A DNA stretch of 64,000 bases, from contig CAVPNU010000005.1 in the NCBI GenBank assembly GCA_963706855.1, positions 297,422 to 361,421 of the forward strand. The letters run 5' to 3'. The translations under genes were made by a program, and so were the position numbers. How positions within the stretch are numbered: the stretch's first letter is position 1; each line of letters opens with the position of its first letter. Below the pieces are notes generated by a model, which saw only the letters and a list, made by a program, of their open reading frames with translations, was not told where the DNA came from and searched no databases. This document shows, in pieces, positions 1 through 64,000 of the stretch. This DNA is from an uncultured Actinomycetota bacterium. GTDB taxonomy: Bacteria > Actinomycetota > Actinomycetes > Actinomycetales > Dermatophilaceae.

Positions 1-131
1 TAGACGAAGCCCGAGGTGAGGTAGAGCGCCTCGGCCGTCTCGTCGAAGTTGCTGCGGGCCAGGCCGGCCCGGACGGCGAGCGTGTCTGGGCGGAACGTGT
101 TGTCCCCCAACGCATCCTGCGGTGTGCTCAT
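1..131 (-). CDS. PLP-dependent O-succinyl/acetyl-homoserine sulfhydrylase-like (MetZ/MetY family), N-terminal fragment running off the window
   Basis: The reverse complement of 1-131 reads MSTPQDALGDNTFRPDTLAVRAGLARSNFDETAEALYLTSGFV, the typical Cys/Met-metabolism PLP enzyme N-terminus. Its ATG overlaps the stop of the upstream rhodanese gene (ATGA). Confidence 0.55.
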   Translation of the reverse strand, partial: MSTPQDALGDNTFRPDTLAVRAGLARSNFDETAEALYLTSGFV

Positions 132-541
132 CCCTGCCTCCACGGGAGTCCGGCGACCTTCCAGCCCGCCACGGTGCGGTGCCCGAACTCGTCGTGCGGG
201 CCCTCGAAGCCGTCGAGGACGTTGTATGCCGGGCCGAGCCCGGCCGCCGTGGCGGCCTCGGCGGCTGCCACGGAGCGCACGCCGGAGCGGCACAGGAAGT
301 AGATCGGCGCGCCGTCGGGCAGGCCCGAGTCCTGGAGCTGCTCGACGAAGTCGCCGTTGACGGCGCCGTCGGGGAACCGCTGCCACTCGACGGCGACGAC
401 TCGCTTGCCCAGGGCCGACAGGTCGGGCATGCCCACATAGGCCCATTCGGCCGCGGTGCGCACGTCGACGAGGACCGCGTCCTCGTCGGCCGCCAGCGCG
501 GCATACGCCTCCTCGGGCTGCACATCTCCCGCGTACGTCAT
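128..541 (-). CDS. rhodanese-domain sulfurtransferase (single domain)
   Basis: 137 aa ORF with rhodanese features (YFLCRSGVRS active-site Cys loop). Sits immediately upstream of the metZ-like gene. Confidence 0.8.
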   Translation of the reverse strand: MTYAGDVQPEEAYAALAADEDAVLVDVRTAAEWAYVGMPDLSALGKRVVAVEWQRFPDGAVNGDFVEQLQDSGLPDGAPIYFLCRSGVRSVAAAEAATAAGLGPAYNVLDGFEGPHDEFGHRTVAGWKVAGLPWRQG

Positions 542-595
542 GGCGCCAAGCCTAGGACCACCGCCACATGGCGAGACGGCAGGGCCAGATAGTGG

Positions 596-1210
596 TCAGG
601 TCACGCGTCGGGCGTGGCCGAGGAGGCGGGGCGCGGCGACATCGGTGTTGTCGACGACGATGGTCGCCCGGTCCTGCGGCGAGCAGGCGGCGAAGTAGAG
701 CTGCTGACCCTCGACATACCGGCGCAGGCTCGGGTGCCGGTGGTCGGGGCTCGACCCGTCGCGGACCGCCATCCTGCGCGCCGTCTCCTCGAACGGCACC
801 TCGAGGAACACGGAGAAGTCCCACGCGTCGACCAGCTCGTCGCGATGCAGGAACAACCCGTCCACGACCACGACCGCGGCGGCCGGCGCAAGCACCGAGG
901 GCGGCCAGAGCACCTGGTCGCTGGAGAGGTCGTGCGCCTTGGCCCGGTAGCGCCTCGACCCACCGGGACCGAGCGGCGTGAGCACGTCCTGCCGGAACCG
1001 CTCGTCGTCGTAGGAGTCGAGCCAGAAACCCTGGGCCGACGTCCGTCCCAGGCGGTACCGGCGGGCGCGGACGTGGTGGAAGTCGTCGACGGATATCCGG
1101 ACAGTGGGACGCCCGGCCCGCCCCAAGCACGACGCCAGCTCGTCCGCGAAGGTGGTCTTCCCCGACCCGTCGACGCCGTCGACAGCGACCAGCACGCAGT
1201 CCTCCGACAC
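596..1210 (-). CDS. udk: uridine kinase / PRK-family nucleoside kinase
   Basis: 204 aa with a P-loop (VDGVDGSGKTTFADEL) and a uridine-kinase-like ISVDDFH motif. Uniformly high GC3. Confidence 0.65.
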   Translation of the reverse strand: MSEDCVLVAVDGVDGSGKTTFADELASCLGRAGRPTVRISVDDFHHVRARRYRLGRTSAQGFWLDSYDDERFRQDVLTPLGPGGSRRYRAKAHDLSSDQVLWPPSVLAPAAAVVVVDGLFLHRDELVDAWDFSVFLEVPFEETARRMAVRDGSSPDHRHPSLRRYVEGQQLYFAACSPQDRATIVVDNTDVAAPRLLGHARRVT

Positions 1211-1275
1211 CGCCTCCGGAACCAGGGCGGCGATGCGCCGTCAGCAGCTCGGCCCGCTCCCCCGCCATGGACGAC

Positions 1276-2438
1276 TCAGGTCCGGTTGGTGAAGGCGATC
1301 GACGCGTTGCCGTCCGCCCAGACCTCCACGGCGGTGAGGGACCCCGGAGCCGCGGCGAGGCGCCATACGGTCTCGTGGGGGATCTGCAGGAGGTGGGCTA
1401 GCACGACCATGATCGGCTTGCGGTGGCACACGACGACCGTCGTGCCGCCTGCGGCGACGACCCGCTCGAACGCCGCGATGACCCGCTGCCGCGAGCTGCT
1501 CGTGGGACTCACCCCCAGGCCGGGCGTATGCCGGGTCGTTGCGCAGCGCCGCCAGCTCGTCGGGGTGGTCCCGGACCAGGTCCGCGATGCTGGCGCCGTC
1601 CCAGTCGCCGAAGTCCTGCTCGTCGAAGTCCGCGTCGACCTCGGGGCGGGCGCCGATGGCGGCTGCCACGGCCGCACCGGTCTCGCGGGCACGGGTCAGC
1701 GAGGACGTCACGACACGGGCCTCGCTCCCGTCCAGAAGGTGGGCCGTGGCCCGTCCCTGCGGCCTGCGCCTGCGCCTGGCCCTGGGCGTTGAGCGACGGG
1801 TCGGCTCCCCCGCGACCGTCGAGCTTCGACGCCACGGTGAAGTCGGTGACCCCATGGCGGATGAGCAGCACGCGGGTCGGGGTGCCCAGGTCCGGTGGCG
1901 CCTCGGTGGCCAGTGAGGTCAGCGGTGCGGGGTCGATGATCTCCTCGGTGGCCGCCTCGGCCGCCTCGTCGGTACCGGCATCCGGGGACGCCGCGTCGCC
2001 GACCATGCGGTCGACCGTCCCGCCGTCCATCCCGGTGTTGGACAGGGCGTCGGCGGCCTTGTTCTGCTCGCGCGGGACCCAGGTGTAGCGCACCGAGCCC
2101 CCGGCGCGGGACAGCTCGGCCACCTCGTCGCGGGCCTCCAGGGCCAGCCGCCGCATGTCGGCGTGCTTGATCTTCCACCGGCCGGCCATCTGCTCGACGA
2201 CGAGCTTGGAGTCCATCCGGACCTCGACGTCGGCCGCCGGGTCGATCCGCCGGACCGCCCGCAGCCCGGCGATGAGCCCGGAGTACTCGGCCACGTTGTT
2301 GGACGCCGTGCCCAGGGGTGCGGCGCCCTCCCAGAGCACCGCCTTGGTGCGGGCGTCGCGGACGAGCGCGCCGTAGCCGGCGACTCCGGGGTTGCCTCGA
2401 GACCCCCCGTCGGCCTCGACGACGAGTGCGCGACCCAC
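1276..2438 (-). CDS. bifunctional RNase H / histidine-phosphatase (alpha-ribazole phosphatase-like), Rv2228c-type. Reading frame is broken twice.
   Basis: N-terminal RNase HI domain (LVVEADGGSRGNPGVAGYGALV ... REQNKAADALSN) followed by a phosphoglycerate-mutase-family RHG domain (LLIRHGVTDF...). The protein continues across three frames (ORFs 1509-2495, 1241-1855, 1276-1692), with shifts near 1840 and 1680. Proposed GTG start at 2438. Confidence 0.7.
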
Positions 2439-5174: not shown

Positions 5175-6606
5175 TCAGACCAGCGGGCGGCGGGCTCTGC
5201 TCGAGCGGACCCGCTGCTCGCCCAGCAGCCGTTCGGCGTCGGCGAGTCCCAGATGGGCGACCTCGGTGCGCACCGGCCCGGGGGTGGACCCGAGCCGGAC
5301 GGTGGCGACGCCGCGCCACCGCTGGACGAGGCCCTGGCGCACGGCGACACCCTGGATCCGCGCGTGCGGGACCACCTGGGCCTCCCTGCGCAGCACGCCG
5401 CTGCGCAGGACGAGGCTGTCGGGCGTCACGGCATACCCCCGGCGGCGCCAGCCCACGGGGTCGAGCACCCAGGCGCGGGAGGGGGCCGTCGTGAACCCGT
5501 GGCCCGGACCGCTGCGCGTGCCGGCGACCACCGCCAGCTCGGCCGGGAGCTCAGGGCGCACGAGCGCCAGCACCGCCAGGGCCTCGGGCAACGTGCCGAC
5601 GGGCAGCAGCAGCGTCTCGGTGTCCTGCTCGCCGTGCTCATGGACACCGGCGACGTTGACCCGCAGCCGCCACCATCCGGTCCACCGCCAGAACAGGGGC
5701 TGGACCAGACCGGCTGCCTGGATCCGGTGCAGCGGGACGGTCGTCGAGCGCAGCTCGGTGAGCCCGCGGTGCACGACGAGGCGGTCACCGCGGTGGTCGA
5801 GGGTGAAGTTCGCCTCGCGCACGAGGCTGCGGACATGGCGACCCGCGACGCCGAGCACCATCGGGCCGAGCCACCCGACGAGCTGGGGCAGCCCGAGGGC
5901 GAAACCGACGAGGAGCGTGGGCACGGCAGCCAGGAGGAAGGCCGTACCGCTGCTGAAGACCGCGGCCTGGACCAACCGGACGTTGGGGACCCGCACGACC
6001 ATGGCCGACGCCACCCGCTGCGCCGCCGGGGTCACAGCGCCTCGGCCGAGGCGATGGGCGCGGAGCCGGCCGCCCCGGACGTCACCTCGTCGGCCCGGCC
6101 GGCGAGCTCCATGAGCCGCTCGCGGACCTCCTGGGCGCGGGCGTCGGTGAGGAAGGCCAGCGTGATGTGCGAGCCTCGCCCGCCCGCCGACCGGACCACC
6201 ACCTCGGAGAGCCCGGTCAGCCGCGCCAGGACGGGTCGGGAGATGTCGACGGCCTGGATCCGGTCGAACGGCACCTGCCGGTGCTCGCGGAACAGCAGGC
6301 CTCGCCGGAGCTCGACGAACGCCGACCCGATACGAAACCTGGACACCCGCCACGAGACCCACGCACCGCCGACGATCGCCAGCAGGACGACCCCGGCGAC
6401 GGCGAGGGCCAGCAGCCGGTGCCCCTGGGTGGGGTCCTGGCTCCCGGCATCGGGGCCCTGCGCCGGAACAGGCGCTCCACCTGCTGGCTGAGGACGTAGC
6501 CCACGACGGCGACGAAGGCCACCCCGCCGCGCAGCAGCGGCGACAGGGGGTGCAGGTGCTGCCACTGGCCTTGCCCGTCGGACGACGCCGGGCCCGGGTC
6601 GCTCAC
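5175..6606 (-). CDS. YdbT-like membrane protein with repeated bacterial PH (bPH_2) domains. Reading frame broken at least twice.
   Basis: N-terminus (WQHLHPLSPLLRGGVAFVAVVGYVL) lies in the 6217-6606 frame. The first PH domain (FRIGSAFVELRRGLLFREHRQVPFDRIQAVDISRPVLARLTG) lies in the 6032 frame. Two further PH repeats lie in the 5175 frame. Shifts near 6440 and 6030. Confidence 0.6.
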
Positions 6607-7095
6607 AGCCCCGCCCGTTGGGACTCACCCCGGGCCACCAGCCGCTGGCGCAGCGCCTCCGCCTGGGCCACCGACAGACCCGGGATGTCGGCGCTGAGGT
6701 GCGGGGACGCGGTGTGCAGGGTGACCTCCGCGAGGCCGAGGACCCGGTCGAGCGGCCCACTCTGGACGTCGACGTACTGCAGCCGGCCATAGGGCACGCT
6801 GACCAGCGAGCGGTTGAGCCGCCCGCGCCGCACGACGAGCTCGTCCTCGAGCTCGATCCAGCTGATCGCCGGCACCTGCCGGACCACGACCCACGTCCCA
6901 ACGGCCCCGACGAGCAGGACCACGGCGACCGCCCACCAGAAGCCGGCGCGACACCAGGACCGCGAGCGCCACGGCGACGACCAGGGGCACGGCGAGCGCC
7001 GCGGCGAGGATCACCAGCCGCGCCGCGACCAGCCGCGGGGAGACCGGCTGCCACGGCATACCGGAGTCGTCGAACAGGCGGACGTCGGGGCCCAC
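6603..7095 (-). CDS. YdbS-like PH-domain membrane protein. Frameshift near 6950.
   Basis: A TM hairpin (LVAARLVILAAALAVPLVVAVALAVLV) is followed by a bPH_2 domain (WIELEDELVVRRGRLNRSLVSVPYGRLQYVDVQSGPLDRVLGLAEVTL) in another frame. Its stop overlaps the ydbT-like start. Confidence 0.6.
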
Positions 7096-7160
7096 GCTGG
7101 CCCCCCCGACGAGGTGTCACTCACGCCACCAACCTATTGCCGCATAGGGTCACGAGCATG

Positions 7161-7998
7161 GGTCGGGTCACCAGCCGCACGCCGAGCATCCGTGTCGAGG
7201 TCGGCGAGGACGACCTCCTGCGCGCCACGTCGCGGCCGGACACCCTCGCGGTCGAGGAGCCCCTGGAGATCCGGGTCGGTGGCACGTCGGTCACCGTGAC
7301 CATGCGGACCCCGGGCGACGACTTCGACCTCGCCATCGGCAACCTGCTCACCGAGGGCGTCCTGCGCCGGGCCGAGCAGGTGCACCAGCTGATGCACTGC
7401 CTCGACGAGGACGAGTCGGGTGCGCCCACCTACAACGTCGTGGACGTCACCCTCGCGCCCGGCGTCGTCCCCGACCTCGAGCGCAGCGCGCGCTCGGGCT
7501 ACCAGACCAGCGCGTGCGGGGTGTGTGGCAAGACGAGCATCGACGCCATCGCGGCGACCAGCCCGTATGCCGTGGCCGACGACCCCGTCGTGCTCTCCCC
7601 TCACGTCGTGGCCGGGCTGCCCGACGTGCTGCGCGAGCACCAGAAGGTCTTCGACCGCACGGGCGGGCTGCATGCGGCCGGCCTGTTCACCCCCGAGGGC
7701 GAGCCGCTGGTCGTCCGCGAGGACGTCGGGCGGCACAACGCGGTCGACAAGGTCGTCGGCTGGGCGGCGCGCGAGCGACCGCCTGCCGCTGACCGGCCAC
7801 GTGCTCGTCGTCAGCGGGCGGGCCAGCTTCGAGCTCGTCCAGAAGGCCGTCATGGCGGGGGTTCCCGCTCTGGTCGCCGTCTCCGCGCCGTCCTCGCTCG
7901 CCGTGGGGCTGGCCACGGAGGCCGGGCTCACCCTCGTCGGCTTCGCCCGGCCACCGCGCCTGACCGTCTATGCCGGCGCGCACCGGCTGGGCCTCTGA
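7161..7998 (+). CDS. fdhD: formate dehydrogenase accessory sulfurtransferase FdhD. Frameshift near 7775.
   Basis: FdhD motifs ([23 protein letters not shown]). The C-terminus ([34 protein letters not shown]) continues in the 7420-7998 frame. Confidence 0.8.
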
Positions 7999-8163
7999 GG
8001 GGCCGACAGTCCACGCCCGGATATATCTCGGCCACGCTCCGCATACTGGCCAGTAGCCCGGATCCGGTTGTGACCTGCGCCTCGTTGGGGTGGAAGATGG
8101 ACGCGAGGTCGCTGGCAACCCCGCGGCCCGCTGTGAAGCCCGCCTGAGAAAGGACCCACCACC

Positions 8164-10929
<2,766 letters not shown>

Positions 10930-10937
10930 GCGCCCGG

Positions 10938-11811
10938 ATGCCGAGCTCGCCCGGTCGCGTCGCCGTCACCGGCGCCTCGGGCAAGCTCGGGCGGGCGGTG
11001 GTCACCCATCTGGTCGACCAGGGCTGGGACGTGCTGGCCCTCGACCAGCACCGACCGGCGGAGGCGGTCACGCCCTTCGTCGCGGTCGACCTCACCGACT
11101 ACGGCCAGGTGGTGGAGGCGCTCGCCGGTGACGTCGACGAGCACCGGGGCGCCATCGACGCCGTCGTGCACCTGGCCGCGGTGCCCGCGCCCGGGGCTGG
11201 TGAGCAACGCCGCCACCTTCGCCAACAACTCGGCCGCGACCTTCCACGTCTTCGCCGCGGCCCGGGCCGCCGGGATCCGCAAGGTGGTCTGGGCCTCCAG
11301 CGAGACGGTGCTCGGCCTGCCGTTCGACACTCCCCCGCCCTACGCACCGGTCGACGAGGAGTACGCGCCGCGGCCCGAGTCGACCTACTCGCTCAACAAG
11401 GCGCTCGAGGAGGAGATGGCCCGGCACTTCTGCCGTTGGGACCCGGCGCTGAGCATGGTGGGACTGCGGTTCTCCAACGTCATGGAGGTGGGCGACTACG
11501 CCGCCTTCCCCTCCTTCGACGCCGACCCGCAGCTGCGCAAGTGGAACCTCTGGGGCTACATCGACGCCCGCGACGGCGCCCAGGCCGTGCGGCGGGCCCT
11601 GGAGCACCCCGATCCCGGCTGCGAGGTGTTCATCATCGCCAACGCCGACACGGTGATGAGCCGGACCAGCAGCGACCTCATGGCCGAGGTCTTCCCCGAC
11701 GTCGAGGTGCGTCGCGAGCTCGGCGACCACGAGACGCTGCTGTCGATCGACAAGGCCCGCCGGGTGCTCGGCTACGAGCCCGAGCACAGCTGGCGCGACC
11801 ACGTCGGCTGA
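10938..11811 (+). CDS. NAD-dependent epimerase/dehydratase (SDR family). Frameshift near 11195.
   Basis: Rossmann motif VAVTGASGKLG at the N-terminus. The remaining 227 aa lie in the 11128-11811 frame (YxxxK region, WASSETVLG). Confidence 0.7.
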
Positions 11812-11869
11812 CCGCTCGCGGGCGGCGCAGACGCCGCCGTTGTGGACGGCATACAAATAGACTTCCCGT

Positions 11870-13038
11870 ATGCCGTCCACGCACCTCGACACCTCGCTGG
11901 TCACCCTGCAGCGGGTCGAGCGGGCTGCGGGCGAGCTGTCCACCGCCGCGACGCGGCGGATGGAGGCCAGCCACGAGTGGTACCGCGCCCTGTCGGCCGA
12001 GGACCGCTCCTGGGTGGGACTCGTGGCACAGGCCGGCATCGGGGCCTTCATCGCCTGGCTGCGCGCCGGCGGCGACCAGGTCCCGGTGACCGCCGACGTC
12101 TTCGGCACGGCCCCGCGTGAGCTGACCCGCTCGATCACGCTGCGCCAGACGCTCGACCTGGTGCGGTCGGTGGTCGACGTCGTGGAGCTCGACGCGACCG
12201 CCCTCGCCGAGCCCGGCGAGGAGCAGGCTCTGCGGGAGTCGGTCCTGCGGTACTCCCGCGAGATCGCCTTCGCCGCCGCGGAGGTCTATGCCCACGCGGC
12301 CGAGGCGCGCGGCGCCTGGGACGCGCGGCTCGAGGGACTCGTCGTCGACGCGGTGCTCCGTGGTGAGGCCGACGACTCGATGCAGTCCAGGGCCGCCGCG
12401 CTCGGCTGGGGCACCACCACACGGGTCGCGGTGGTGGCGGGGAGCACGCCCGTCGGGCAGCCCGGCGGGGGTCGTGGACGGCCTGCGCCGCGCGGCCCAG
12501 CGCGTCGGGGTCGACACGCTGGCGGCCATCCAGGGGCGCCGGCTCGTGTGCATCCTCGGCAACGCCGAAGACCCGCTCGAGGCGACCCGGGCGGTGACCG
12601 ACCACTTCGGCGACGGTCCCGTGGTCGTCGGACCACGCGTACCCCACCTCTTCGCCGCAGGGCGCTCGGCGCGGGCGGCGCTCGCCGGCCAGTCCTGCGC
12701 GCACGCCTGGCCCCAGGCACCCCGCCCGGTCGCCGCTGACGACCTGCTGGCCGAGCGCGTCCTGGTCGGCGACGCCCCCGCCCGCGCCCTGCTGCTCGAC
12801 CGCATCTGGCATCCGCTGAGCGTCGGCCAGCGGCTCGCTGCTCGACACCGCCTCGGTCTACCTGGAGTCCGCCGGCGGGCTGGAGGGCACGGCGCGGTTG
12901 TTGTTCGTCCATCCCAACACCGTCCGCTACCGACTGGGCAAGATCGCCGACCTCACGGGATACCAGCTCACCGACCCCCACGACGCCCACACCGTCCGGA
13001 TCGCCCTGGCACTGGGTCGGCTGCGCAGCGTGCGCTGA
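11870..13038 (+). CDS. PucR/CdaR-family transcriptional regulator (Rv2242-like). Two frameshifts.
   Basis: N-terminal domain in the 11870 frame, middle in the 12288 frame, and C-terminal PucR helix-turn-helix (LLDTASVYLESAGGLEGTARLLFVHPNTVRYRLGKIADLTGY) in a third frame ending at TGA 13036-13038. Sits upstream of fabD as in mycobacteria. Confidence 0.7.
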
Positions 13039-13131
13039 CGCTCCGCTTTGGAGGTTTCCTCCAAAACATGCCCGGGATGTTGGTGCCAAACGGTCACGGT
13101 GAGGTCACGCCGCGACGGCAAGGCTGGGACC

Positions 13132-14067: not shown

Positions 14068-14068
14068 C

Positions 14069-15092: not shown

Positions 15093-15176
15093 CAGACTCC
15101 CGCTGGTCCGCGGGTGAACCGGGCCGACCAACGCAGTCACACCCATCGCACATCAACCACTAAGGAGCTGAGCCAG

Positions 15177-15425: not shown

Positions 15426-15535
15426 GCCTGACCGGCGCGGGGCGGCGGCGGCATACTCGTAGATCCGAGTGCCAGCCACCGCTCCGCGCCGGCGCACCAC
15501 CGACGCACCATCCCCACGAAGGAGCAGATCCAGCC

Positions 15536-18126: not shown

Positions 18127-19814
18127 TCAGTTGCTGTGCGTGGCCCATTCTGCACCATGGATCACATCTGCACCAGCGCTTTCACCTGTGCCGCCACCGG
18201 CGCGGCGGATGACGACCCCGGCGGGGATGCTGCTCGCCACCGCCACAGCGGCGAGGACCGTGAGCGTCGCCCGTGCGTCCCAGCCTGCTGCCAGACCGGC
18301 CAGTGCGGTCCCGGCGGAGGAAAAGGCCACCTTCGTTCCCGCGACCGTCACGAAGACGGATCCGCGGGCCTCGGGGGGTGCGTACTCGCCGCGGGCGGCG
18401 AGGCTCAGAAGCCGTGACGACTGCCAGGGCGGGACCGTCGGGGGTGCGACGAACACGGCCAAGGACTGCGTAGGCGGCCACGACGGCTGGGAACCATCGT
18501 TCGAGCAGGACGACGGCGACCAGTGGTGGTGCGAGCGCGGCGACGAAGAGCACCATCCCCCGGTCCGGCTCCATCCTCAGGGGGCGGACGGTCAGGGCAA
18601 GTCCGCCGACCAGGCTGCCGAGTCCGAAAGCCACCGCCACCCACCCGCCGTAGCCGGTGGCCTGCTCCTCACCCAGGCTCATCCCCGTGAGCAGGGCGGC
18701 GGAGACGAGGAAGGCCCCGACCCAGGTGAGCAGCGCGACCCGTCGCAACGGGGCATGACGCAGCACTGCGGACAGCCCGGAGCGGGCCGCATCTGGTGAC
18801 GGGTGGGCGGGTTCGGTCGAAGAGCATGGGGTCGTTGGTCGTGGTGCGCATCGACGCGATCGCGGAGCTGGTGGCCGCCGCACAGGGAGGCGAAGGACGA
18901 CGTAGCCCTGGCCGACAGGCCATCGAGGGACCTCAGGCCGCCAACCGCGACTCCCGCCGCGGGGCGACGACCGCGGCGGCGAGCCGCTGCGACGAGGACC
19001 GGGGCGCCGCTACGGCGAGCGTAGGTGAGGCGTCGACCGCGCGCAGGCGCCGTGATCACGACCACGGCCAACGCAGCGAGGACCACGGACGCCACCGCTG
19101 TCCGAGCAGTGACCACATGGCTCCCCCGCGTCAGGGCGACCACCATGGCATACGCGACGGCCACGGCGAAGGCCGTCAGCCCCGAACGCTTCGGGCCGTG
19201 AGCGGACAAGGCGGGAGCAGCTGCCACAGCAGGATCACCTGTATGGCGACCAGGACGAACGCCTCGCGGAAGAAGTTGCCATCAGGGCTGTCAAAGCCGT
19301 GCAGGCGATCGCGGTCGGGTGCCAGCGCAGGGAGACGGCCACGAGGACCAGGAGCCCGAGCCCGTGAGAGTGCGACGGTCCCGAATCGTCAGCGCGACGC
19401 AGGTGGCCAGCACAGCACCGAGGAGGACGCCGATACCGAGCGACGGGGCCGACCCGAGTCCCTCGGTGCCGACCAGGAGCCGACCGGCCCAGTCCAGCCA
19501 CGTGCCCGGGACGAACGGGACGTCCTTGGTATCGCCGAGTGCTCGACCGCGACGTAGGTGGGCACGAGCACGAAAGCGTCCATGACGATCCCGAGGATGG
19601 CGAGGCCCGCCCAGCGCGCAAGCGTCACCCACGGCCGTGGCCACTCGGATGGCTTCGCCACGATCATCGCGCACACGATCAGACCCGAGGCCAGGGTGGC
19701 CATCGATGCCGTGTAGAAGTGCAGCACCAGCAGACGAAGAAGAGCAGCGGCGTCAGCCACGCCACCCGGCGGCGCTCGCGCACCAGAGCGCCAGCGTCCG
19801 CCCACAGCAACCAT
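18127..19814 (-). pseudogene. MFS transporter, reading frame broken at least four times
   Basis: TM-rich pieces lie in frames 19389-20123, 19291-19674, 18679-19227, 18182-18883 and 18127-18462. Frameshift density is higher than in neighbouring genes, so this may be a true pseudogene or an error hotspot. Confidence 0.5.
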
Positions 19815-43489: not shown

Positions 43490-44287
43490 TCAGACGCGGG
43501 CCGTGTCGCGACGGAACCGCCACACCGCCCCTCCGGCGAAGATGGCCAGCCAGACGAGGACGTTGACGACCGCGGCCGTGCCCGGGGCGGTGCCCTTCAG
43601 GGGTGCGTGCACGATCTGGTTGAGCCCGTACATCGGCGTGTAGGTGGCGATCGTCTGGAACGCCGAGCCGAGCTGGTTCAGCGGGACGAACAGCCCACCG
43701 AGGAAGGCCAGCAGCGCCAGCGCCGGTCCGAGGATCTGCATGACGTTCTCGCTCGGGAGCAGGTACCCCATGAAGACGCCGAACGCGGCGAAGACCAGCG
43801 ACCCCACCCAGGCGAGCAGCGCCGTCTCCACCCAGACCGGGCCGTCCATGTGCGCGCCGGACGAGGCGCCCGCGGCATACGTGACGACCACCGCGATCGG
43901 CGCCGAGCACCATCGCGACGAGCACCTTCACCGCGATGTATGCCGGTGCCGTGAGCGGCGTGAGCCGCAGCTGGCGGCTCCAGCCCTGGCTGCGCTCGAC
44001 CGCCACCATGGCGCCGCCCCCGGTGGTCGACAGCATCGCGCCGTAGAGGGCCATGCTGATCATGATGAAGCCGGCGACGTTGCCGTGACCCGCGCTCAGG
44101 TTCGGAGTACTTCTGGCCCGATGCCGAACATGAAGTAGAAGGCGACCGGCATGACCAGCGAGAAGATCACGGTGCGGCGGTTGCGCAGCATGCGGCGCAG
44201 CTCGAGGAACAACAGGGTGGCGTTGAAGCCGCCCATCGGCGGCACGCTGCGCTGAGGGGTCGACGGGGCGGCGGTCGTGAGGCTCAT
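43490..44287 (-). CDS. ABC-2 type exporter permease. Frameshifts present.
   Basis: TM-rich pieces in frames 44096-44287, 43413-44063 and 43490-43891. Confidence 0.65.
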
Positions 44288-47085: not shown

Positions 47086-48489
<1,404 letters not shown>

Positions 48490-48861: not shown

Positions 48862-48882
48862 GCCGCCTCGCGACGTCGCTTT

Positions 48883-48919
48883 TGACAATCATTCTCATTT
48901 GCAGTGAGAATGATTGTCA
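48883..48919 (+). promoter_or_regulatory. two inverted Zur boxes (TGACAATCATTCTCA and TGAGAATGATTGTCA) forming a 37-bp AT-rich palindrome that overlaps the znuA start codon
   Basis: Each 15-mer matches the actinobacterial Zur consensus TGAnAATnATTnTCA in 13/15 positions. AT-rich island in a GC-rich region. The zur gene ends the operon. Confidence 0.65.
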
Positions 48920-51694: not shown

Positions 51695-52143
51695 CCGGAC
51701 CCCGCACGCACGAGCGCGCCCAGACTTCCGCTTCGGAGGCGCCCGACTCGGGCCGGCGGCCGACCCGCCAGCGCGCCGCCGTCGCGGCGGTGCTGGCCGA
51801 GACCAGCGAGTTCTGCTCGGCCCAGGAGCTGCACGCCCGGCTGCGGACGATGGGCGACAAGGTCGGGCTGGCCACCGTCTACCGGAACCTGCAGGCCATG
51901 GCCGCGGACGGCGAGATCGACATGATCCGCACCGACGAGGGCGAGGCGGTCTACCGAGCCTGCTCGACCGGCCACCACCACCACCTCGTCTGCCGACGGT
52001 GCGGCACGACGGTCGAGGTCGAGGGGGCGGCGGTCGAGACCTGGGCGAGGACGGTCAGCGCCGACCACGGGTTCACCGAGGTCGACCACACCGTCGAGAT
52101 CGTCGGCCTCTGCGCCGACTGCCTAGCGCCCGCCCGGTCGTAA
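51691..52143 (+). CDS. zur: Fur-family zinc uptake regulator
   Basis: 150 aa with a winged-helix N-terminus, the HHHHLVCRRCG...CADC zinc sites, and a TAA stop. Cognate Zur boxes lie at the operon start. Confidence 0.85.
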   Translation: MTGPRTHERAQTSASEAPDSGRRPTRQRAAVAAVLAETSEFCSAQELHARLRTMGDKVGLATVYRNLQAMAADGEIDMIRTDEGEAVYRACSTGHHHHLVCRRCGTTVEVEGAAVETWARTVSADHGFTEVDHTVEIVGLCADCLAPARS

Positions 52144-52213
52144 CCTCTGCTAGCAGCAGTTCCTGACGCAGCAGGTGCAGCCTCTGCTGGCGGCCAAGTT
52201 CTGCTAGCAGAAG

Positions 52214-53005
52214 TTAGCGCGGGCCGGCGGTAGCGCGGTCGACGGCCCCGCCGTAGCGGCGGTCGCGCTCGGCATACGTCTGGATGGCCTGCCACAGGTG
52301 CCGCCGGTCGTAGTCGGGCCACAGCGTGTCCTGGAAGACCATCTCGGCGTACGCGCTCTGCCACAGCAGGAAGTTGCTGGTCCGCTGCTCCCCCGAGCTG
52401 CGGACGAACAGGTCGACGTCCGGCATGTCGGGCTCGGGCAGGTGTCGCGCGATCGTCTTCTCGTCGATCGACCCCGGCTTGAGCTTGCCGCGCTGGACCT
52501 GCTCGGCGATGCGTGCGACGGCGTCGGCGATCTCGGCGCGGCCGCCGTAGTTCACGCAGAAGTACAGCGTCAGCCCCGTGTTGTCGGCGGTGAGCTCCTG
52601 GGCCGTCTCGAGCTCCTTGATGACCGACCCCCACAGCCGCGGCCGGCGGCCGACCCACCGCATCCGCACGCCCCACTCGTGCAGCTGGTCGCGCCGCCGG
52701 CGGATCACGTCGCGGTTGAAGCCCATGAGGAATCGCACCTCGTCGGGGCTGCGCTTCCAGTTCTCCGTCGAGAACGCGTACGCCGACAGGTGCGTCACGC
52801 CGACCTCGATCGCCCCCGCGACGACGTCGAGCAGCGCCGCCTCGCCCGCCTCGTGGCCCTGCGTGCGAGGCAGGCCCCGCTGGTTGGCCCACCGGCCGTT
52901 GCCGTCCATGACGACCGCCACGTGGCGCGGGACCAGCTCGCGAGGGAGGGTCGGCGGGAGGGCGCCGCTCGGGTGGGGAAACGGCTTCGCGTATGCCGCG
53001 CTCAC
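52214..53005 (-). CDS. uppS: (Z)-isoprenyl / undecaprenyl diphosphate synthase
   Basis: GTG start. cis-prenyltransferase motifs [13 protein letters not shown] and [11 protein letters not shown]. Confidence 0.85.
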
Positions 53006-53757
53006 GCGGGAGTCGCCGTGGCGTTGGGGTCTCGTCGGTCCACGAGACGCAACGATCGCACACCGCGTTCGAGATGCCACTGCAGGAACGCGCTGGCGAG
53101 CGTGCTGCCCTCGCGCCGGTGCCGCGTCTCGGAGGCATCGGCCACCACCCAGTCGCCGGCGAGCAGGGCGGCGAGCAGGGCCAGGGTCTGGGGCGCCGGC
53201 GCAGCGGAGCCGGGCGGCCGGCATACGGGGCACACGGTGCCGCCGGCGGCGAGGTTGAACGCGCGGTGCGGACCGACCGCGCCGCACCGGGCGCAGTCGT
53301 GGAAGCTCGGCGCCCAGCCCGCGATGGCGAGCGCCCGCAGGAGGTAGGCGTCGAGGACCAGCCCGGGGTCGTGGACGCCCTCGGCCATCGAGCGCAGCGC
53401 CCCCTGCAGCAGGAGGTACTGCTGCAGGTTGGGCTCGCGCTCCTCGGTCAGCCGGTCGGCCGTCTCGAGCATGGCGGCGGCGCTCGTGTACGTCGTGTAG
53501 TCGCGGGCCAGCACGTCACCCCAGGACGCGAGCGTCTCGGCCTGAGTGACGGTGTCGAGCGAGCGGCCCTCGTAGCACTGGAGGTCGACCATCATCGCCG
53601 GCTCCAGGCGCGCCCCGAACCGGCTCTTGGTGCGCCGGACCCCCTTGCCCACGACGCGCACCTTGCCGAGCCCCCGGGTGAGCAGCGTGACGATGCGGTC
53701 GGCCTCGCCCAGCTTCTGGGTGCGCAGGACGATGCCTTCGTCGCGATAGAGGGGCAT
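53002..53757 (-). CDS. recO: DNA repair protein RecO
   Basis: About 250 aa from [23 protein letters not shown] with a C-terminal Cys4 zinc finger (CARC...CPVC). Overlaps the uppS start by 4 nt. Confidence 0.85.
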
Positions 53758-53875
53758 GGGTCCATTGTCTCTCGACCCGGCGACATCCACGGGACGCCGC
53801 GACGGCCTGTCTCTAGAACATACTGTTCGAATCGTGCGTATGCTGATGCCATGAGTACGGCTGCACTGGTACGGC

Positions 53876-54494
53876 ATGGCAGGCCTCGCTCCTCGACGTC
53901 GCCGACGACATCGCCCTCCAGCCGCTCGGCAGCGGGCTCCAGCGGACGACCCTGTCGCGAGGCGCCTGGGTCGACTACCGGCCCGGCTGGCTCGCGGCGG
54001 CCGACCAGCTGTTCGACCTGCTCCACCACGACGTGCCGTGGCATGCCGAGCGCCGCGAGATGTACGAGCGGATGGTGGACGTCCCTCGCCTGCTGAAGTT
54101 CTACGACCAGGGCGAGCCGCTCCCCCACCCGGTGCTGGCCCAGGCCCGCGACACCCTGAGCGAGTGGTATGCCGCGGAGCTGGGCGAGCCCTTCGTCACT
54201 GCCGGGATGTGCCTCTATCGGGACGGGCGTGACTCGGTGGCCTGGCATGGCGACCGCATCGGCCGGGCCAAGGATCTCGACACCATGGTCGCGATCCTCT
54301 CGGTCGGCTCGGCGCGCTCGCTCATGCTGCGACCGCGCGGGGGCGGCGAGTCGATCGGCTTCTCCCTCGGCCACGGCGACCTGGTCGTCATGGGTGGCTC
54401 GTGCCAACGCACCTGGGACCACTGCATACCCAAGACCGCCAAGCCCGTCGGGCCGCGCATCTCGATCCAGTTCCGCCCCCGCGGCGTCCGCTGA
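53876..54494 (+). CDS. AlkB-like 2OG-Fe(II) oxygenase. Frameshift near the 5' end.
   Basis: C-terminal 153 aa ORF has the HxD...H triad context (WHGDRIG...HCIPKT). The N-terminal about 50 aa ([34 protein letters not shown]...) lie in another frame. Confidence 0.65.
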
Positions 54495-54540
54495 CCGAGG
54501 GCGTCAGCCGCGCCGGCCAGGCCGACCCAGCGGGCGCCGG

Positions 54541-56313
<1,773 letters not shown>

Positions 56314-56522
56314 TCAGCCCGGGCAACGCGACTCCGCGACGAGGGGCGGCTGATCGGTCAGGCCCCGCCGCGGCGGCGAAGGAGAAGGCGCAGAGAACGC
56401 ACGCGACGAGGGTATGCCGCGGCCGCGGCATACGTCCATGGAGCCCAGCATCCGGACGGGGTGACCACTTGCCGAGGCGCCACGGTCCGAGTACGACTGA
56501 GGTACCCGCGAGGAGGCAGCTC

Positions 56523-58467
56523 ATGACCCATGTCACCGACAGCGAGTCGCGCGCGGTGGCCGAGGCCGCCCGCGAGACCGAATGGGACCGTCCCAGCTTC
56601 GCGCGCGGCCTCTATCTCGGGCGGTTCGACCTCGACCTGGTCCATCCCCATCCTCGCGCCCGGCCGGAGGACGAGGCGCGCGGCGAGGAGTTCCTGAAGC
56701 GGCTGCGCGAGGTCTGCGAGGGCTTCGACGGGACCCGGATCGAGCGCGACGACCGCATCCCGGACGAGTACCTCGCGGCGCTCACCGAGATCGGCGCCTT
56801 CGGGATGAAGATCCCGCGCGAGTACGGCGGTCTGGGGCTGACCATGTCGTCGTACGGCAAGGCGCTGGTCCTCGCCGGGTCGGCGCACCCGAGCATCGGC
56901 GCGCTGCTGTCGGCGCACCAGTCGATCGGCGTCCCCGAGCCGGTCAAGCTCGTCGGCACGCCTGAGCAGAAGCAGGCCTTCCTCCCCCGCTGCGCGGCCG
57001 GCGCGATCTCGGCCTTCCTCCTCACCGAGCCCGACGTCGGATCCGACCCGGCCCGGATGGCGAGCACGGCCACCCCGACGCCGGACGGCACGGCATACCT
57101 GCTCGACGGGGTGAAGCTGTGGACCACCAACGGCGTCGTCGCCGAGCTGCTCGTCGTCATGGCGCGGGTGCCCGCTCGCGATGGCGAGCGCGGCGGCATC
57201 ACGGCGTTCGTCGTCGAGGGCACCAGCGAGGGCATCACCGTGGAGCGGCGCAACTCGTTCATGGGGCTCAAGGGGCTCGAGAACGGCCTGACCCGGTTCC
57301 ACCAGGTGCGGGTGCCGGCCGAGAACCGGCTGGGCGCCGAGGGCGAGGGGCTCAAGATCGCGCTGACGACCCTGAACGCCGGCCGCCTGTCCATCCCGGC
57401 GATGTGCGCGGCTGCAGGCAAGTGGTCGCTCAAGATCGCCCGCGAGTGGTCGGGCGCCCGGGTCCAGTGGGGCCGGCCGGTGGGCGAGCACGAGGCGGTG
57501 GCCCAGAAGATCGCGTTCATCGCGGCCACGACGTACGGGCTCGAGTCGGTGCTCGAGCTGTCGGCGCAGCTCGCCGACGCCGGTGGCAAGGACATCCGGA
57601 TCGAGGCGGCCCTGGCCAAGCTCTGGGCCAGCGAGATGGCGTGGCGCATCGCCGACGAGCTCGTGCAGATCCGCGGTGGCCGCGGCTACGAGACGGCGGC
57701 GTCGCTGGCGGCTCGCGGCGAGCGCGCGGTGCCCGTCGAGCAGGTGCTCCGCGACCTGCGGATCAACCGGATCTTCGAGGGCTCGACCGAGATCATGCAC
57801 CTGCTCATCGCCCGCGAGGCGGTCGACGCCCACCTCAAGGCCGCGGGCGACCTGGCCTCACGCGACGCCGACCTGCGTCACAAGGCTCGTGCGGCGGTGG
57901 GTGCCAGCGGCTTCTACGCGACGGTGGCTGCCGCACCTCGTGGCAGGCCAGGGGAACCTGCCCACCTCGTATGCCGAGTTCGGCCCGCTCGCGGAGCACG
58001 TGCGCTACGTCGAGCGCGCCTCCCGGAAGGTCGCCCGGCAGACGTTCTACGCGATGTCACGGTGGCAGGCCCGGCTGGAGTACCGGCAGGCGTTCCTCGG
58101 ACGGGTCGTCGACATCGGGGCAGAGCTGTTCGCCATGTCGGCGGCGTGCTCGCGAGCCGCGATGCTGTGCGCCGATGAGGCGGCTGGTCGCGGGAGCGAT
58201 GGCGGCGGGCGGTCGGCCCAGCAGCTCGCCGACGCCTTCTGCAGCCAGAGCCGGCTGCGGGTGGACCGGCTGTTCGAGGAGCTGTGGACCAACACCGACG
58301 ACCGGGACCGGCGGGTGGCCCAGGGCGTGCTGGCCGGCGACTACCGGTGGCTGGAGGCGGGGGTGCTCGACCCGTCCGAGGGCACCGGGCCCTGGATCGC
58401 CCCGTGGTCGCCGGGACCGAGCGAAAGCGAGTCGGTCTGGCGCAGTGCGGTGAGCCGGCTGCGCTGA
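56523..58467 (+). CDS. long-form acyl-CoA dehydrogenase with a C-terminal extension. Frameshift near 57920.
   Basis: ACAD N-terminal, middle and C-terminal domains in the 56310 frame (start MTHVTDSES). The extra C-terminal domain continues in the 57583-58467 frame. Confidence 0.75.
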
Positions 58468-58488
58468 GCCCGGCTCGCCGAGACTCGC

Positions 58489-59583
<1,095 letters not shown>

Positions 59584-60519
59584 TCAGAAGCCCAGCCGCT
59601 GGAGCTGCTTGGGGTCGCGCTGCCAGTCCTTGGCGATCTTGACGTGGAGGTCGAGGTGCACGCGCTGCCCCAGCAGCTCCTCGATGCCCTGTCGGGCGGT
59701 CGTGCCCACCTCGCGCAGGCGCGCCCCACCCCGGCCGATGATGATGGCCTTCTGGGACGAGCGCTCGACGAACACGTTGACCCGCACGTCGAGCAGCGGC
59801 TTGCCCTCGGGGCGCCCCTCGCGGGGCAGCATCTCCTCGACCACGACCGCCAGCGAGTGGGGCAGCTCGTCACGCACGCCCTCGAGCGCGGCCTCGCGGA
59901 CCAGCTCGGCGATCATGACGGCCTCGGGCTCGTCGGTGAGCACGCCCTCGGGGTACAGCGGGCCGGGCGAGCTCGGCAGGTAGGAGGCGAGCACGCCGGC
60001 GACCTCCTCGACCTGGGTGCCGTCGACGGCCGAGCACGGCACGATGGCATCCCAGCTGCCGAGCTGGTCGATGGCGATCAGGTGCTCGGCCAGCCGCTGC
60101 CGGTCGACCCGGTCGGTCTTGGTCGCGATCGCCACGACGGGTCGCCGCTTGGCCTGCTGGAGCTCGGCCAGCTCGCGGGCGATGAAGGAGTCGCCGGGGC
60201 CGATCCGCTGGTCCGCGGGCAGGCAGAACCCGATGACGTCCACCTCGAGCAGCGTCTCGCGGACCACGTCGTTGAGCCGCTCACCGAGCAGGGTGCGCGG
60301 CTTGTGCAGCCCGGGAGTGTCCACCAGCACCAGCTGGTACTGGTCGGTGGTGACGATGCCGCGGATCGTGTGCCGGGTCGTCTGCGGCTTCGAGGACGTG
60401 ATCGCGACCTTCTGGCCGACGAGCGCGTTCGTGAGGGTGGACTTGCCCGCGTTGGGGCGGCCGACGAGGCACGCAAAGCCCGCGGCATACGGCCTGTCGG
60501 TCATGACACTGCCTTTCAT
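59584..60519 (-). CDS. era: GTPase Era
   Basis: G1 GRPNAGKST, G3 DTPG, and a KH domain at the C-terminus. Start chosen at the ATG preceded by an AGGAG RBS. Confidence 0.88.
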   Translation of the reverse strand: MKGSVMTDRPYAAGFACLVGRPNAGKSTLTNALVGQKVAITSSKPQTTRHTIRGIVTTDQYQLVLVDTPGLHKPRTLLGERLNDVVRETLLEVDVIGFCLPADQRIGPGDSFIARELAELQQAKRRPVVAIATKTDRVDRQRLAEHLIAIDQLGSWDAIVPCSAVDGTQVEEVAGVLASYLPSSPGPLYPEGVLTDEPEAVMIAELVREAALEGVRDELPHSLAVVVEEMLPREGRPEGKPLLDVRVNVFVERSSQKAIIIGRGGARLREVGTTARQGIEELLGQRVHLDLHVKIAKDWQRDPKQLQRLGF

Positions 60520-60520
60520 G

Positions 60521-61851
<1,331 letters not shown>

Positions 61852-61869
61852 GGGAGGCTCACGAGGCGC

Positions 61870-62366
61870 ATCAGGAGGAGGTGCGGCCGCGACCGGCGAG
61901 GAAGGTCAGCAGCAGCTGGCGCTGGAGCTCGAACATCTCGCGCTCCTCCTCGGGCTCCGCGTGGTCGTAGCCGAGCAGGTGCAGGATGCCGTGGGTCGTC
62001 AGGAGCAGCAGCTCCTCCTCGGTCGCGTGACCCGCCTCGGCGGCCTGCCGGGCGGCCACCGACGGGCACAGGACGATGTCGCCGAGGACGCCCTCCTGCG
62101 GGTCGTCGCCCTCGCGCCCGGGCCGCAGCTCGTCCATGGGGAAGCTCATCACGTCGGTCGGGCCCGGGCAGGTCCATCCACTGCACGTGGAGCACCTCCA
62201 TGGCCGCCTCGTCGACGAGCCGCAGGCACAGGTCGGCGCCGGGGTGCACCCGCATCTGCTCCATGACGTACTTGCTCAGCGCCACCAGCTCGAGCTCGTC
62301 GAGCTGGTGGTCGGTCTCATTGAGAACGTCGACGCTCACGCTGACCTCGCCCTCCTCGACCTGCAT
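61870..62366 (-). CDS. ybeY: rRNA maturation endoribonuclease YbeY. Frameshift near 62155.
   Basis: HGxLHLxGYDH metal-binding motif ([11 protein letters not shown]) in the 61871-62152 frame. N-terminus in the 61848-62366 frame. Confidence 0.8.
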
Positions 62367-63403
62367 CCCGGCCGTCCCGCTGGTCGCGGTGCTGGACCTC
62401 GTCCCAGCGGCCGTAGGCGTCGACGATGGCGCCGACGAGCCGGTGCCGCACGACGTCCTGGGGGGTCAGCATCGAGAAGTGGATGTCCTCGACGTCCGCC
62501 AGGATCTCGCGGACGACGCGCAGGCCCGACTTCGTGCCGTCGGGCAGGTCGACCTGGGTGACGTCACCCGTGACCACCATCTTGGAGCCGAACCCGAGCC
62601 GGGTCAGGAACATCTTCATCTGTTCCGGCGAGGTGTTCTGGGCCTCGTCGAGGATGATGAACGCGTCGTTCAACGAGCGGCCACGCATGTAGGCGAGCGG
62701 GGCGACCTCGATGGTGCCGGCTGCCATGAGACGCGGGATCGACTCGGGGTCGACCATGTCGTGCAGCGCGTCGTAGAGCGGGCGCAGGTAGGGGTCGATC
62801 TTGTCGTTGAGCGTGCCGGGCAGGAAGCCGAGCCGCTCCCCCGCCTCGACGGCCGGCCGGGTCAGGATGATCCGGTTGACCTGCTTGGCCTGGAGCGCTG
62901 CGACCGCCTTGGCCATCGCCAGATAGGTCTTGCCTGTGCCTGCGGGGCCGATGCCGAACACGACCGTGTGCTCGTCGATCGCGTCGACGTAGTGCTTCTG
63001 GTTGAGCGTCTTGGGCCGGATGGTGCGACCGCGGTTGCGTCACGATGTTCATGGTGAGCACGTCGGCGGGTCGCTCGGTCGTCTGGGCGCGCAGCATGCT
63101 GATCGACCGCTCCACCGCGTCGCGGTTGAGGGGCTGGCCGCCCTCGATGACGAGCAGCAGCTCGTCGATGGTCCGCTCGGCCAGGGCCACCTCGGCACTC
63201 GGGCCGGACAGGTGGAACTCGTTGCCCCGCACGTGGATCTGCAGCTGCGGGAAGGCTCGCTCCATCGTCCGCAGCAGCTCGTCGCGCGGTCCGAGGAGGG
63301 TGACCATCTGCACCTGCGGCGGGATCACGACGGTGTGTGTGGGCGCGGGCCGGGCGGCATCGGGCGCGCCGTCCAGCGTGGTCGGATGATCGGCGTCAGG
63401 CAT
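62350..63403 (-). CDS. phoH: PhoH-like ATPase. Frameshifts near 63010 and 62390.
   Basis: KH-like N-terminal domain in the 62564-63403 frame. P-loop [13 protein letters not shown] and the PhoH core in the 62317-62961 frame. Confidence 0.8.
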
Positions 63404-63479
63404 GGTCCGTCCAGTCTACGGTGCGCTCAGCCACGGTGCCGCTCAGCAGCCGGCCCCGTCCCGCGGACTGCCAGCCGCG

Positions 63480-63861
63480 TCACCCGGGCGGCCATCCCAT
63501 GACCCGGCCCCCGAGCACGTGGACGTGAGCGTGGAAGACGGTCTGGTGGGCGTCGCGCCCGGTGTTGAAGACCGTGCGGTAGCCGCCCTCGTCGATGCCC
63601 TCCTGATGCGCAACGGCCGCGACCGCGCCCATGAGGGGAGCCACCTCGGCGGGGGCCTGCTCCGACCAGCGCCGCCACAGTCGGCACGTGCCGGCGGGGC
63701 ACGACCACGACGTGGGTCGGCGCCTGGGGCTCGAGGTCGCGGAAGGCGACCGTGTGCTCGTCCTCGTGCACCACGGTGGCGGGGATCTCACCGGCGACGA
63801 TGCGACAGAACACGCAGTCGGGGTCGGTCGGGACGTCGGTCGGAGCCTGCGTGGGCGGCAT
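63480..63861 (-). CDS. HIT-family nucleotide hydrolase. Frameshift near 63660.
   Basis: N-terminus CVFCRIVAGEIP in one frame. Histidine triad HAHVHVL in the 63480-63911 frame. Confidence 0.75.
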
Positions 63862-64000
63862 GAGCCCGAGACTACCGGCGGGTCAACCGAAAGACAGGGT
63901 TGCGCGTCCATGGAGCGTGAGACCGTTGGGTGTGGCTGAGCGGAACCGCCTCGGCGCGGCCGCCGAGAGCTCCGCCGACGCAGGGGTCGCGGAGCTGTAT

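Follow-up and report, generated by a model that had tools for sequence, protein, structure and literature searches.

Frameshifts in about half of the genes of a Pedococcus-like actinobacterial contig: probable consensus errors at strain polymorphisms

How can about half of the genes in a bacterial housekeeping region be out of frame, essential ones among them? This question is raised by a stretch of contig CAVPNU010000005.1 (assembly GCA_963706855.1, positions 297,422 to 361,421), here called the window, i.e. the whole 64,000 nucleotides (nt) that were analysed. Its roughly 62 genes form a typical actinobacterial housekeeping stretch, Pedococcus-like and with a G+C content of 72%, and about 30 of these genes are interrupted by some 60 frame-changing events. 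The frameshifts are artefacts of how the record was made and do not reflect gene decay. Most of those resolved at the nucleotide level are insertions of a single base. They avoid homopolymers and often coincide with positions that are polymorphic among close relatives, where the window holds both alleles side by side. It is probable that the window represents the consensus of closely related, naturally mixed strains of an uncultured, Pedococcus-like actinobacterium from soil.

The frame changes were located with a codon-usage model trained on long intact open reading frames (ORFs), with which the window was decoded in a seven-state Viterbi pass. The coding potential changes frame repeatedly on the same strand, without a stop codon at the junction. 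The decoded segments were stitched and then scanned against Pfam. Domains were found to be collinear across the junctions for CT398, His_Phos_1 (twice), FdhD, Epimerase, GGDEF_2 (in the PucR-family regulator), ACP_syn_III (in FabH), GAF_2, HATPase_c, COesterase, ABC_tran, DNAG_N, Rhodanese, ABC2_membrane (twice), DUF6703, ZnuA, CNNM (twice), YbeY and HIT. In tblastn searches with ORFs of relatives as queries, successive high-scoring segment pairs fall in different frames. A preliminary description of the window had claimed that about 30 genes need a frame jump and that automated gene calls would be badly fragmented here, and both claims hold. The same is true of the two jumps in dnaG (near 38209 and about 36860); the real C-terminus, QLAQLRDRAS followed by the stop, lies in another frame after the latter. 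The genes that had been called intact (aceE, leuA, glyS, fabF, dusB, asd and era) are all unbroken, and fabD is likewise intact.

Close relatives were found by exact look-up of the acyl carrier protein and glycyl-tRNA synthetase (GlyRS) of the window, and by look-up of 97%-identical homologues of its CNNM protein. Their contigs (L081-L090 and L171-L177) are 94-97% identical to the window in DNA. They derive from the metagenome-assembled genome (MAG) GCA_036000045.1 and from at least seven independent, short-read soil metagenomes of JGI, ENA and Logan. Together they cover the window at 5214-18993, 20770-22086 and 45241-64000, which is 53% of its length. All genes of the relatives are unbroken and have their normal lengths, with 279 amino acids (aa) for FdhD, 293 for the epimerase, 388 for the PucR-family regulator, 340 for FabH, 324 for ZnuA, 441 for CNNM, 155 for YbeY and 363 for PhoH. 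Over about 31.6 kb of aligned sequence, 33 one-base insertions and five one-base deletions are private to the window (1.2 per kb), as are a few longer insertions in the multiple alignments. The prevalence of one-base insertions that had been described is thereby confirmed at nucleotide resolution (sign test, P = 4e-6). In the first alignment the window showed 10 private one-base insertions, against 0-1 for each relative. Comparing the frameshift sites with orthologues had been proposed as a check, and it assigns the lesions to the window alone. The view that true pseudogenes and errors are inseparable without raw data was too pessimistic, since the close relatives separate them for the 53% of the window that they cover.

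Gene integrity was tested by dropping the window-only bases and translating the remainder in the frame of the relatives. All 24 comparable genes are then full length without a single internal stop, and the proteins are 92.5-100% identical to the relative, most of them 96-99.5%. The proteins are as well conserved after a shift as before it, as can be seen in FdhD (98.0% and 98.6%), the PucR-family regulator (98.0%, 97.6% and 97.2%) and FabH (97.6% and 96.6%). The 6.5 kb of coding columns hold 14 private substitutions of the window, every one of them at a third codon position (14 versus 0 at first and second positions). The essential dnaG, fabH and ybeY are struck as readily as accessory genes; phoH and znuA/B also carry lesions, and the relatives are all intact. 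As about 30 frameshifts stand against zero nonsense or non-synonymous changes and essential genes are struck, the lesions are artefacts of record production. Sequence error, and not mass pseudogenisation, had also been the preliminary diagnosis, and it is upheld.

Genuine mass pseudogenisation in the lineage would explain why half of the genes are broken, and the locus with a major facilitator superfamily (MFS)-like gene lies in a strain-variable region that could contain a real pseudogene. However, in a decaying lineage nonsense and non-synonymous changes would build up no more slowly than indels, and the window has no nonsense codons and no private non-synonymous substitution. Essential single-copy genes (dnaG, fabH, ybeY, znuABC) are affected, the conservation past the shifts is undiminished, and all the relatives at 94-97% identity are intact. 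To our knowledge, non-templated insertions beside alleles of a single-nucleotide polymorphism (SNP), as described below, are not the outcome of any mutational process, which also counts against decay. The large share of genes with broken frames resembles the reductive decay of Mycobacterium leprae, but nonsense mutations, non-synonymous drift, deletions and downstream loss of codon bias occur there and none of these is present in the window. Decay is hence hardly credible. An even smaller chance, close to nil, is given to programmed ribosomal frameshifting or transcriptional slippage as a means of restoring the frames. Nothing speaks for it but the +1 direction of most shifts. No slippery motif or homopolymer is common to the 33 insertion contexts, orthologues with 97-99% protein identity lack the shifts, and as many as eight shifts occur in one gene. 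The poly(A) transcriptional slippage of endosymbionts likewise involves frameshifted genes that are apparently essential, but long homopolymer tracts are needed there, and the sites in the window are not homopolymeric.

If the frameshifts are errors, what kind of error produced them? They had been called homopolymer-associated, and this is contradicted by the inserted bases themselves. Among the 33, 25 are unlike both neighbours, six form a pair, two form a run of three and none falls in a longer run. With a random base placed at a random position in the window sequence, only 48.5% would be unlike both neighbours (25/33 observed, P = 0.001) and about 20% would fall in a run of at least three (2/33 observed, P = 0.02). 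Among the five deletions one shortens a run (GGG to GG, at 8018), and none lies in a run of at least four. The three examples that had been given for insertions in G/C runs are not changes of run length. In fabH ("cgcGGGtac") the surplus base is the T that follows GGG, CGCGGG(T)ACGG, and GGG itself is unchanged in the relatives. In the PucR gene ("cGGGGGt") the G5 run at 12466-12472 is equally long in the relatives, and the indels are actually at 12449 and 12822. In znuA ("caCCCggcc") an A has been inserted into a run of four C, giving GC(A)CCCGG where the relatives read GCCCCGG. The motif CGGGGGT has 22 copies in the window, which is exactly the chance expectation. As some G/C run lies near almost any position in DNA of 72% G+C, the earlier impression of homopolymers can be understood.

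A different signature was found when the insertion sites were compared with the variation among the relatives. The insertion sites are often positions at which the relatives are polymorphic, and the window holds both alleles next to each other. A site was scored as both-allele when deleting one base of the window reproduces one group of relatives and deleting another, non-equivalent base reproduces the other group, the match being exact or with mismatches only elsewhere in the 15-mer. The pattern is present at 10 of the 22 insertion sites covered by at least three relatives, namely 12449, 14576, 15475, 16942, 17131, 60714, 60820, 61834, 62159 and 63664. When 8000 random insertions were simulated in the same alignments, 6-9% gave the pattern, compared to the 45% observed (binomial P = 8e-6). 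A further site, 51625, shows it with two relatives only. At 15475, 16942, 17131, 60714, 60820, 61834, 62159 and 63664 a G/C polymorphism is written as GC or CG in the window. At the fabH site (14576) the relatives read CGCGGG-ACGG (three) or CG-GGGTACGG (five), and the window reads CGCGGGTACGG. The avoidance of homopolymers follows from the same pattern, because the two alleles of a SNP differ by definition.

Two further observations concern the alleles. Of the seven insertions between 10.4 and 18 kb, four lie within 5 nt of a switch of the window between two haplotype groups of relatives (A and B). B-like sequence prevails in the window, with A alleles scattered through it. Such a mosaic could also arise by natural recombination, and at 59-64 kb no clear pattern emerged. 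Among the 18 non-duplicative insertions in coding sequence, the alternative allele is synonymous in 12, where 47% would be expected; this is a weak trend (P = 0.07).

As to the cause, uncorrected long-read indel error had been suggested. An error of production it is, but not one of the homopolymer type, since homopolymers are avoided and about half of the insertions that could be tested coincide with SNPs. The data point to consensus calling on a strain mixture rather than to base-calling in G/C runs. The window is likely a metagenome-assembled contig, because all close relatives come from soil metagenomes, and most probably a consensus step of the pile-up type served to make or polish it from long reads. 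In the proposed mechanism, two co-assembled strains would differ at one base, usually in a synonymous third-position G/C difference. Such a difference is the commonest kind of SNP in a genome of 72% G+C. Some reads would be aligned so that the SNP appears as one deletion and one insertion in place of a mismatch; at fabH 14576 two nearby SNPs are seen that can be written in this way. The consensus would then retain the base of the backbone and accept the inserted one too. The record would hold both alleles adjacent to each other, i.e. a one-base insertion and a +1 frame shift. If insertions were accepted more readily than deletions, the bias of 33 to 5 would be explained. In hypervariable stretches, the process would thread both haplotypes and generate dense small insertions and short imperfect tandem copies, which fits the MFS locus and the insertions of 14-34 nt.

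Other origins of the extra bases have to be weighed against this strain-mixture consensus. Miscalled homopolymer lengths, as in long-read, 454 or Ion Torrent chemistry, are refuted as the main cause, and very unlikely altogether. Such errors are the best-documented source of frameshifts in long-read assemblies (PMC9262707), and with G/C runs so common one is found near almost every shift. Only two of the 33 insertions and one of the five deletions are in a run of at least three and none is in one of at least four, which is below random placement, and none of the three cited sites (fabH, PucR, znuA) proved to be a run-length change. Known nanopore consensus errors are mostly deletions, unlike the insertions of the window. 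Random single-base insertion errors of a low-coverage or unpolished long-read consensus, e.g. residual errors of the PacBio continuous-long-read type, with a partial or incidental overlap with SNPs, are unlikely as well. They would agree with insertions that prevail and are independent of homopolymers, with the 12 of 22 sites that show no polymorphism among the relatives, and with the segment 18820-18993, which looks like raw, insertion-rich read sequence. However, they would yield the both-allele pattern as rarely as the simulation did, they should extend the neighbouring base about half the time (24% seen), and they would also leave substitutions at codon positions 1 and 2, none of which was seen. 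A sequence altered deliberately or by computation, with simulated random insertions, is highly improbable. The events are single-base ones and their rate outside two hot spots is nearly Poisson, as such a procedure would give. Simulated insertions would not fall on natural SNPs with the alternative allele, would not shun identical neighbours, and would not cluster in a strain-variable locus with imperfect tandem copies. Finally, the extra bases might be physically present in a real lineage in which non-templated insertions favour SNP positions, for example through an unknown outcome of heteroduplex repair after recombination between strains. This idea is given almost no weight; if it were true, the organism would tolerate or bypass about 60 frameshifts, including those in dnaG and fabH.

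Several points weigh against the consensus of a strain mixture, or limit its reach. The 12 testable sites without polymorphism among the relatives at hand (e.g. 7774 and 49308, both with an inserted A, and 60617, 61384 and 61602) lie outside the pattern; a second, SNP-independent error process, or SNPs private to the sampled population, may account for the remaining insertions. The explanation does not account for the cluster of eight insertions in the CNNM gene; the polymorphism of the relatives is not visibly higher there. At 1-5.2 kb and 22-45 kb, where there is no close relative (47% of the window), the shifts are located by frame only and placed to about 20 nt; about 11 of these are +1 and six are -1, a weaker bias. 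As far as we know, tools based on partial-order graphs should not output both alleles, and a pile-up type caller is needed. Three components of this explanation are inferred, namely the mixture of strains, the long reads and the particular consensus step at fault. In the literature searched, general support for long-read frameshifts was found, but no description of a SNP written as a dinucleotide or of both alleles being kept.

Errors of consensus or polishing on mixed haplotypes are an existing class in diploid assemblies. The window shares with such collapsed haplotypes or strains the single consensus made from several haplotypes, which gives a mosaic with errors at variable sites. Strain differences and indels are also described to degrade strain-oblivious long-read assemblies (Strainberry, PMC8302730). 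Indel frameshifts are well documented in long-read assemblies and MAGs and usually put down to homopolymers (PMC9262707). In the frameshifts of Nanopore and PacBio data addressed by IDEEL-type tests and by proovframe (10.1101/2021.08.23.457338), gene calls are likewise split by one-base indels in genes that are normal in other respects; the damage is limited to indels and can be repaired from relatives. However, the documented cases are homopolymer miscalls, whereas the insertions of the window avoid homopolymers and about half of them lie at strain SNPs with both alleles. In the broad sense the case is an assembly error too, but its signature differs, with +1 insertions outside homopolymers, at SNPs of which both alleles are retained.

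The frameshifts had also been described as unevenly distributed, with two far denser loci. The CNNM and MFS loci are indeed outliers, but elsewhere the counts per 500 nt are near Poisson (variance/mean 1.2). The CNNM gene has eight insertions in 1.33 kb (P = 3e-4 under a Poisson model with the mean of the window) in place of the "about 6" that had been counted, and the protein stitched from its segments matches intact 441-aa proteins at 97% identity along its entire length. The 2.77 kb of aceE without an indel (P = 0.04) are unremarkable given the number of genes. Comparing the indel density with the polymorphism of the relatives was uninformative, as the number and diversity of the relatives vary along the window. 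For the MFS-like gene at least four jumps had been claimed, and the region has at least 10. Compared with relative L083, a 24-nt insertion is followed by at least 10 small insertions in 170 nt, and about seven more frame changes up to 19805 were found by low-penalty frame decoding.

The MFS-like gene is part of a strain-variable locus (18100-20820) between the DUF3145 gene and the PAS/GAF kinase gene. The window and L083 carry the MFS-like gene here; L081 has a 477-aa membrane protein and a glycosyl/methyltransferase, and L084 an esterase. In a Pfam scan of the ORF fragments of 18.1-20.9 kb only weak YfhO and ABATE matches were obtained, and none that would confirm the MFS assignment. The ORF with the ABATE domain (20152-21039, + strand) was scored as non-coding by the codon model. 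Insertions of 24, 14, 34 and 24 nt that are found only in the window, at 18411-18434, 53875, 54536 and 58483, resemble imperfect tandem copies of the adjoining sequence; the 24-nt insertion at 58483 is in frame.

What does this mean for the use of the record? The organism almost certainly has intact dnaG, fabH, ybeY, phoH, znuA and other affected genes, and the frameshifts have no biological significance. About half of the proteins predicted from the record are truncated or split, and any pseudogene, gene loss or small novel ORF inferred from them would be wrong. Homopolymer-aware polishing or filters would miss these errors, and a strain-aware consensus or a frameshift correction guided by proteins or relatives would catch them. 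If the same consensus step has been used across a MAG catalogue from strain-rich habitats such as soil, the conversion of SNPs to dinucleotides may be widespread. Comparison with near-identical contigs can reveal it without any data beyond the sequence.

Table 1. Frame changes, other indels and intact control genes along the window. Positions are in nt of the window; +1 and -1 give the change of frame.
Feature	Event	Position	Strand	Evidence or remark
RNase H/histidine-phosphatase fusion	two +1	near 1759 and 1488	-	His_Phos_1 1-188 collinear across both; tblastn in three frames; precision about 20 nt
CT398/DUF164-like zinc-ribbon gene	+1	near 3064	-	CT398_CC 1-180 spans junction; tblastn frame -3 to -1
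YdbT-like gene (three bPH_2)	lacks 24 + 28 nt; lacks 1 nt	6008/6041; 6463	-	L081 alignment; tblastn in three frames
YdbS-like bPH_2 gene (173 aa in relatives)	+1; -1	6948; 7105	-	lost G lay between C runs
Intergenic, 4 nt upstream of fdhD start codon	extra G	7154	+	relative alignment
fdhD	extra A between two G, GCGCG(A)GCG	7774	+	L081 and L082; FdhD-NarQ profile spans site
Intergenic	deletion, GGG to GG	8018		only clear homopolymer event
aceE	intact control	8164..10929	+	921 aa, no indel, 99.0% aa identity to L081 over full length
NAD-dependent epimerase	extra C (CC to CCC)	11190	+	four relatives; Epimerase profile spans site
PucR-family regulator	both-allele site	12449	+	window CCCG; relatives CCG (3) or CCC (1)
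PucR-family regulator	extra G between C and T	12822	+	four relatives
fabH	both-allele site	14576	+	window CGCGGGTAC; relatives CGCGGG-AC (3) or CG-GGGTAC (5); nine relatives; ACP_syn_III spans site
acpP-fabF spacer	both-allele site	15475		window CAGCCA; relatives CA-CCA or CAG-CA; nine relatives
Hypothetical protein (211 aa in relatives)	two +1	16942 and 17131	-	both are both-allele G/C sites
MFS-like membrane gene	24-nt + 1-nt insertion (18411-18456); at least 10 small insertions (18820-18993); about 7 frame changes (19019-19805)	18411..19805	-	
PAS/GAF histidine kinase	extra G	21716	-	L084 alignment
PAS/GAF histidine kinase	two further changes in -1 direction	near 22140 and 23102	-	GAF_2 spans 22140; no stops; no close relative
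Hybrid histidine kinase	frame changes	near 24932 and 26118	-	HATPase_c 2-110 spans 24932
Sensor kinase (ORF 27333-28574)	+1	27898	-	C-terminal half of long ORF non-coding-like
Carboxylesterase	-1	30034	+	COesterase 23-514 spans junction
Amino-acid ABC transporter ATPase	+1	34240	+	ABC_tran 1-137 spans junction
dnaG (start GTG 38720)	two +1	near 38209 and 36860	-	DNAG_N spans 38209
dgt (dGTPase)	frame change	39564	-	between HD and HD_assoc domains
Rhodanese (SseA-like) sulfurtransferase	+1	42892	+	Rhodanese profile spans junction
ABC-2 permease	two frame changes	43897..44109	-	ABC2_membrane 6-200 spans both
Hypothetical protein (414 aa in L177)	four +1	45369, 45837, 45899, 46040	-	L176 and L177 alignment
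glyS	intact control	47086..48489	-	467 aa, no indel; protein identical in three independent metagenome contigs
DUF6703 gene	extra base (CC pair)	48744	+	three relatives; DUF6703 profile spans site
znuA	extra A splitting C4	49308	+	window GC(A)CCCGG, relatives GCCCCGG; three relatives; ZnuA profile spans site
znuB, 3' part	+1 (both-allele G/C); -1	51625; 51686	+	L171 and L175
alkB-like 2OG-Fe(II) oxygenase	14-nt insertion at start codon	53875	+	imperfect copy of adjoining sequence; start lost
Acyl-CoA dehydrogenase	extra G	57919	+	L171 and L172
CNNM/CBS (CorC-type)	eight +1	60617, 60714, 60820, 61060, 61206, 61384, 61602, 61834	-	four relatives; three clear both-allele G/C sites
ybeY	both-allele C/G site	62159	-	relative alignment
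phoH	+1 within short divergent patch	63034	-	relative alignment, tblastn
HIT-family gene	both-allele C/G site	63664	-	relative alignment

The intergenic one-base events (7154, 8018, 11816, 13045, 15475, 53822 and 56466) make up seven of the 38 (18%), while intergenic DNA is about 8-10% of the aligned sequence. Some of them may be real strain differences and not errors. The YdbT-like gene of L081 contains a 15-nt tandem repeat (GGGCCATCGGCCGCA, near 800-860 of that contig), and the gap of 24 + 28 nt in the window falls inside it. With one relative covering the site, the gap is either a real difference in copy number or a collapse.

Further attempts to find relatives gave less. The exact look-ups of the acyl carrier protein and GlyRS each also counted one contig of 0.2-1 Mb with the identical protein, which may or may not be the record of the window itself. 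Exact look-ups of the aceE, AhpC, DJ-1, hemerythrin, DusB and ABC ATPase proteins returned no match, and a 2771-aa stitched polyprotein query matched long multidomain proteins only. A homology search with GlyRS at E <= 1e-100 gave a single match of 62%; our guess is that this cut-off is too strict for partial metagenome proteins. A metagenome scan with Era returned relatives at no more than 91% amino-acid identity (about 85% in nucleotides), which are usable for frames but not for tests at the level of SNPs.

The closest named relatives belong to Pedococcus: AceE is 95% identical to that of a Pedococcus MAG, and the CNNM protein shares 97% identity with a "hemolysin family protein [Pedococcus sp.]". 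The G+C content is 69-73% throughout the window, which also contains three tRNA genes. The gene order begins with NIF3, a CT398-like gene, the RNase H/phosphatase fusion, DUF3052, AhpC, the YdbS/YdbT-like genes, fdhD and aceE. These are followed by the epimerase, the PucR regulator, fabD-fabH-acpP-fabF, DUF3145, the variable locus, the PAS/GAF and hybrid histidine kinases, the carboxylesterase and an SPFH gene. Then come dnaG, dgt, dusB, the ABC-2 transporter, a sigma factor, glyS and znuACB-zur, and the last part holds uppS, recO, alkB, leuA, the acyl-CoA dehydrogenase, asd, era, CNNM, ybeY, phoH and HIT.

The SPFH/Band 7 ORF (31119-32873) extends for about 300 codons as an Arg/Pro-rich, non-coding-like sequence that overlaps the beginning of the lipoprotein gene behind it. 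A shift near 31880 has probably cost the ORF its stop. In a 96%-identical relative (L173, 3116-5284), PhoH has 722 aa instead of about 363 and shows a LAGLIDADG match. The extra sequence, which is absent from the window, L171 and L174, is probably an intein. In the isolate reference Flexivirga alba NBRC 107580 (L013, about 10001-12762), aceE consists of two ORFs in different frames, of 219 aa and 834 aa, that match the AceE of the window, which is a frameshift in another public genome.

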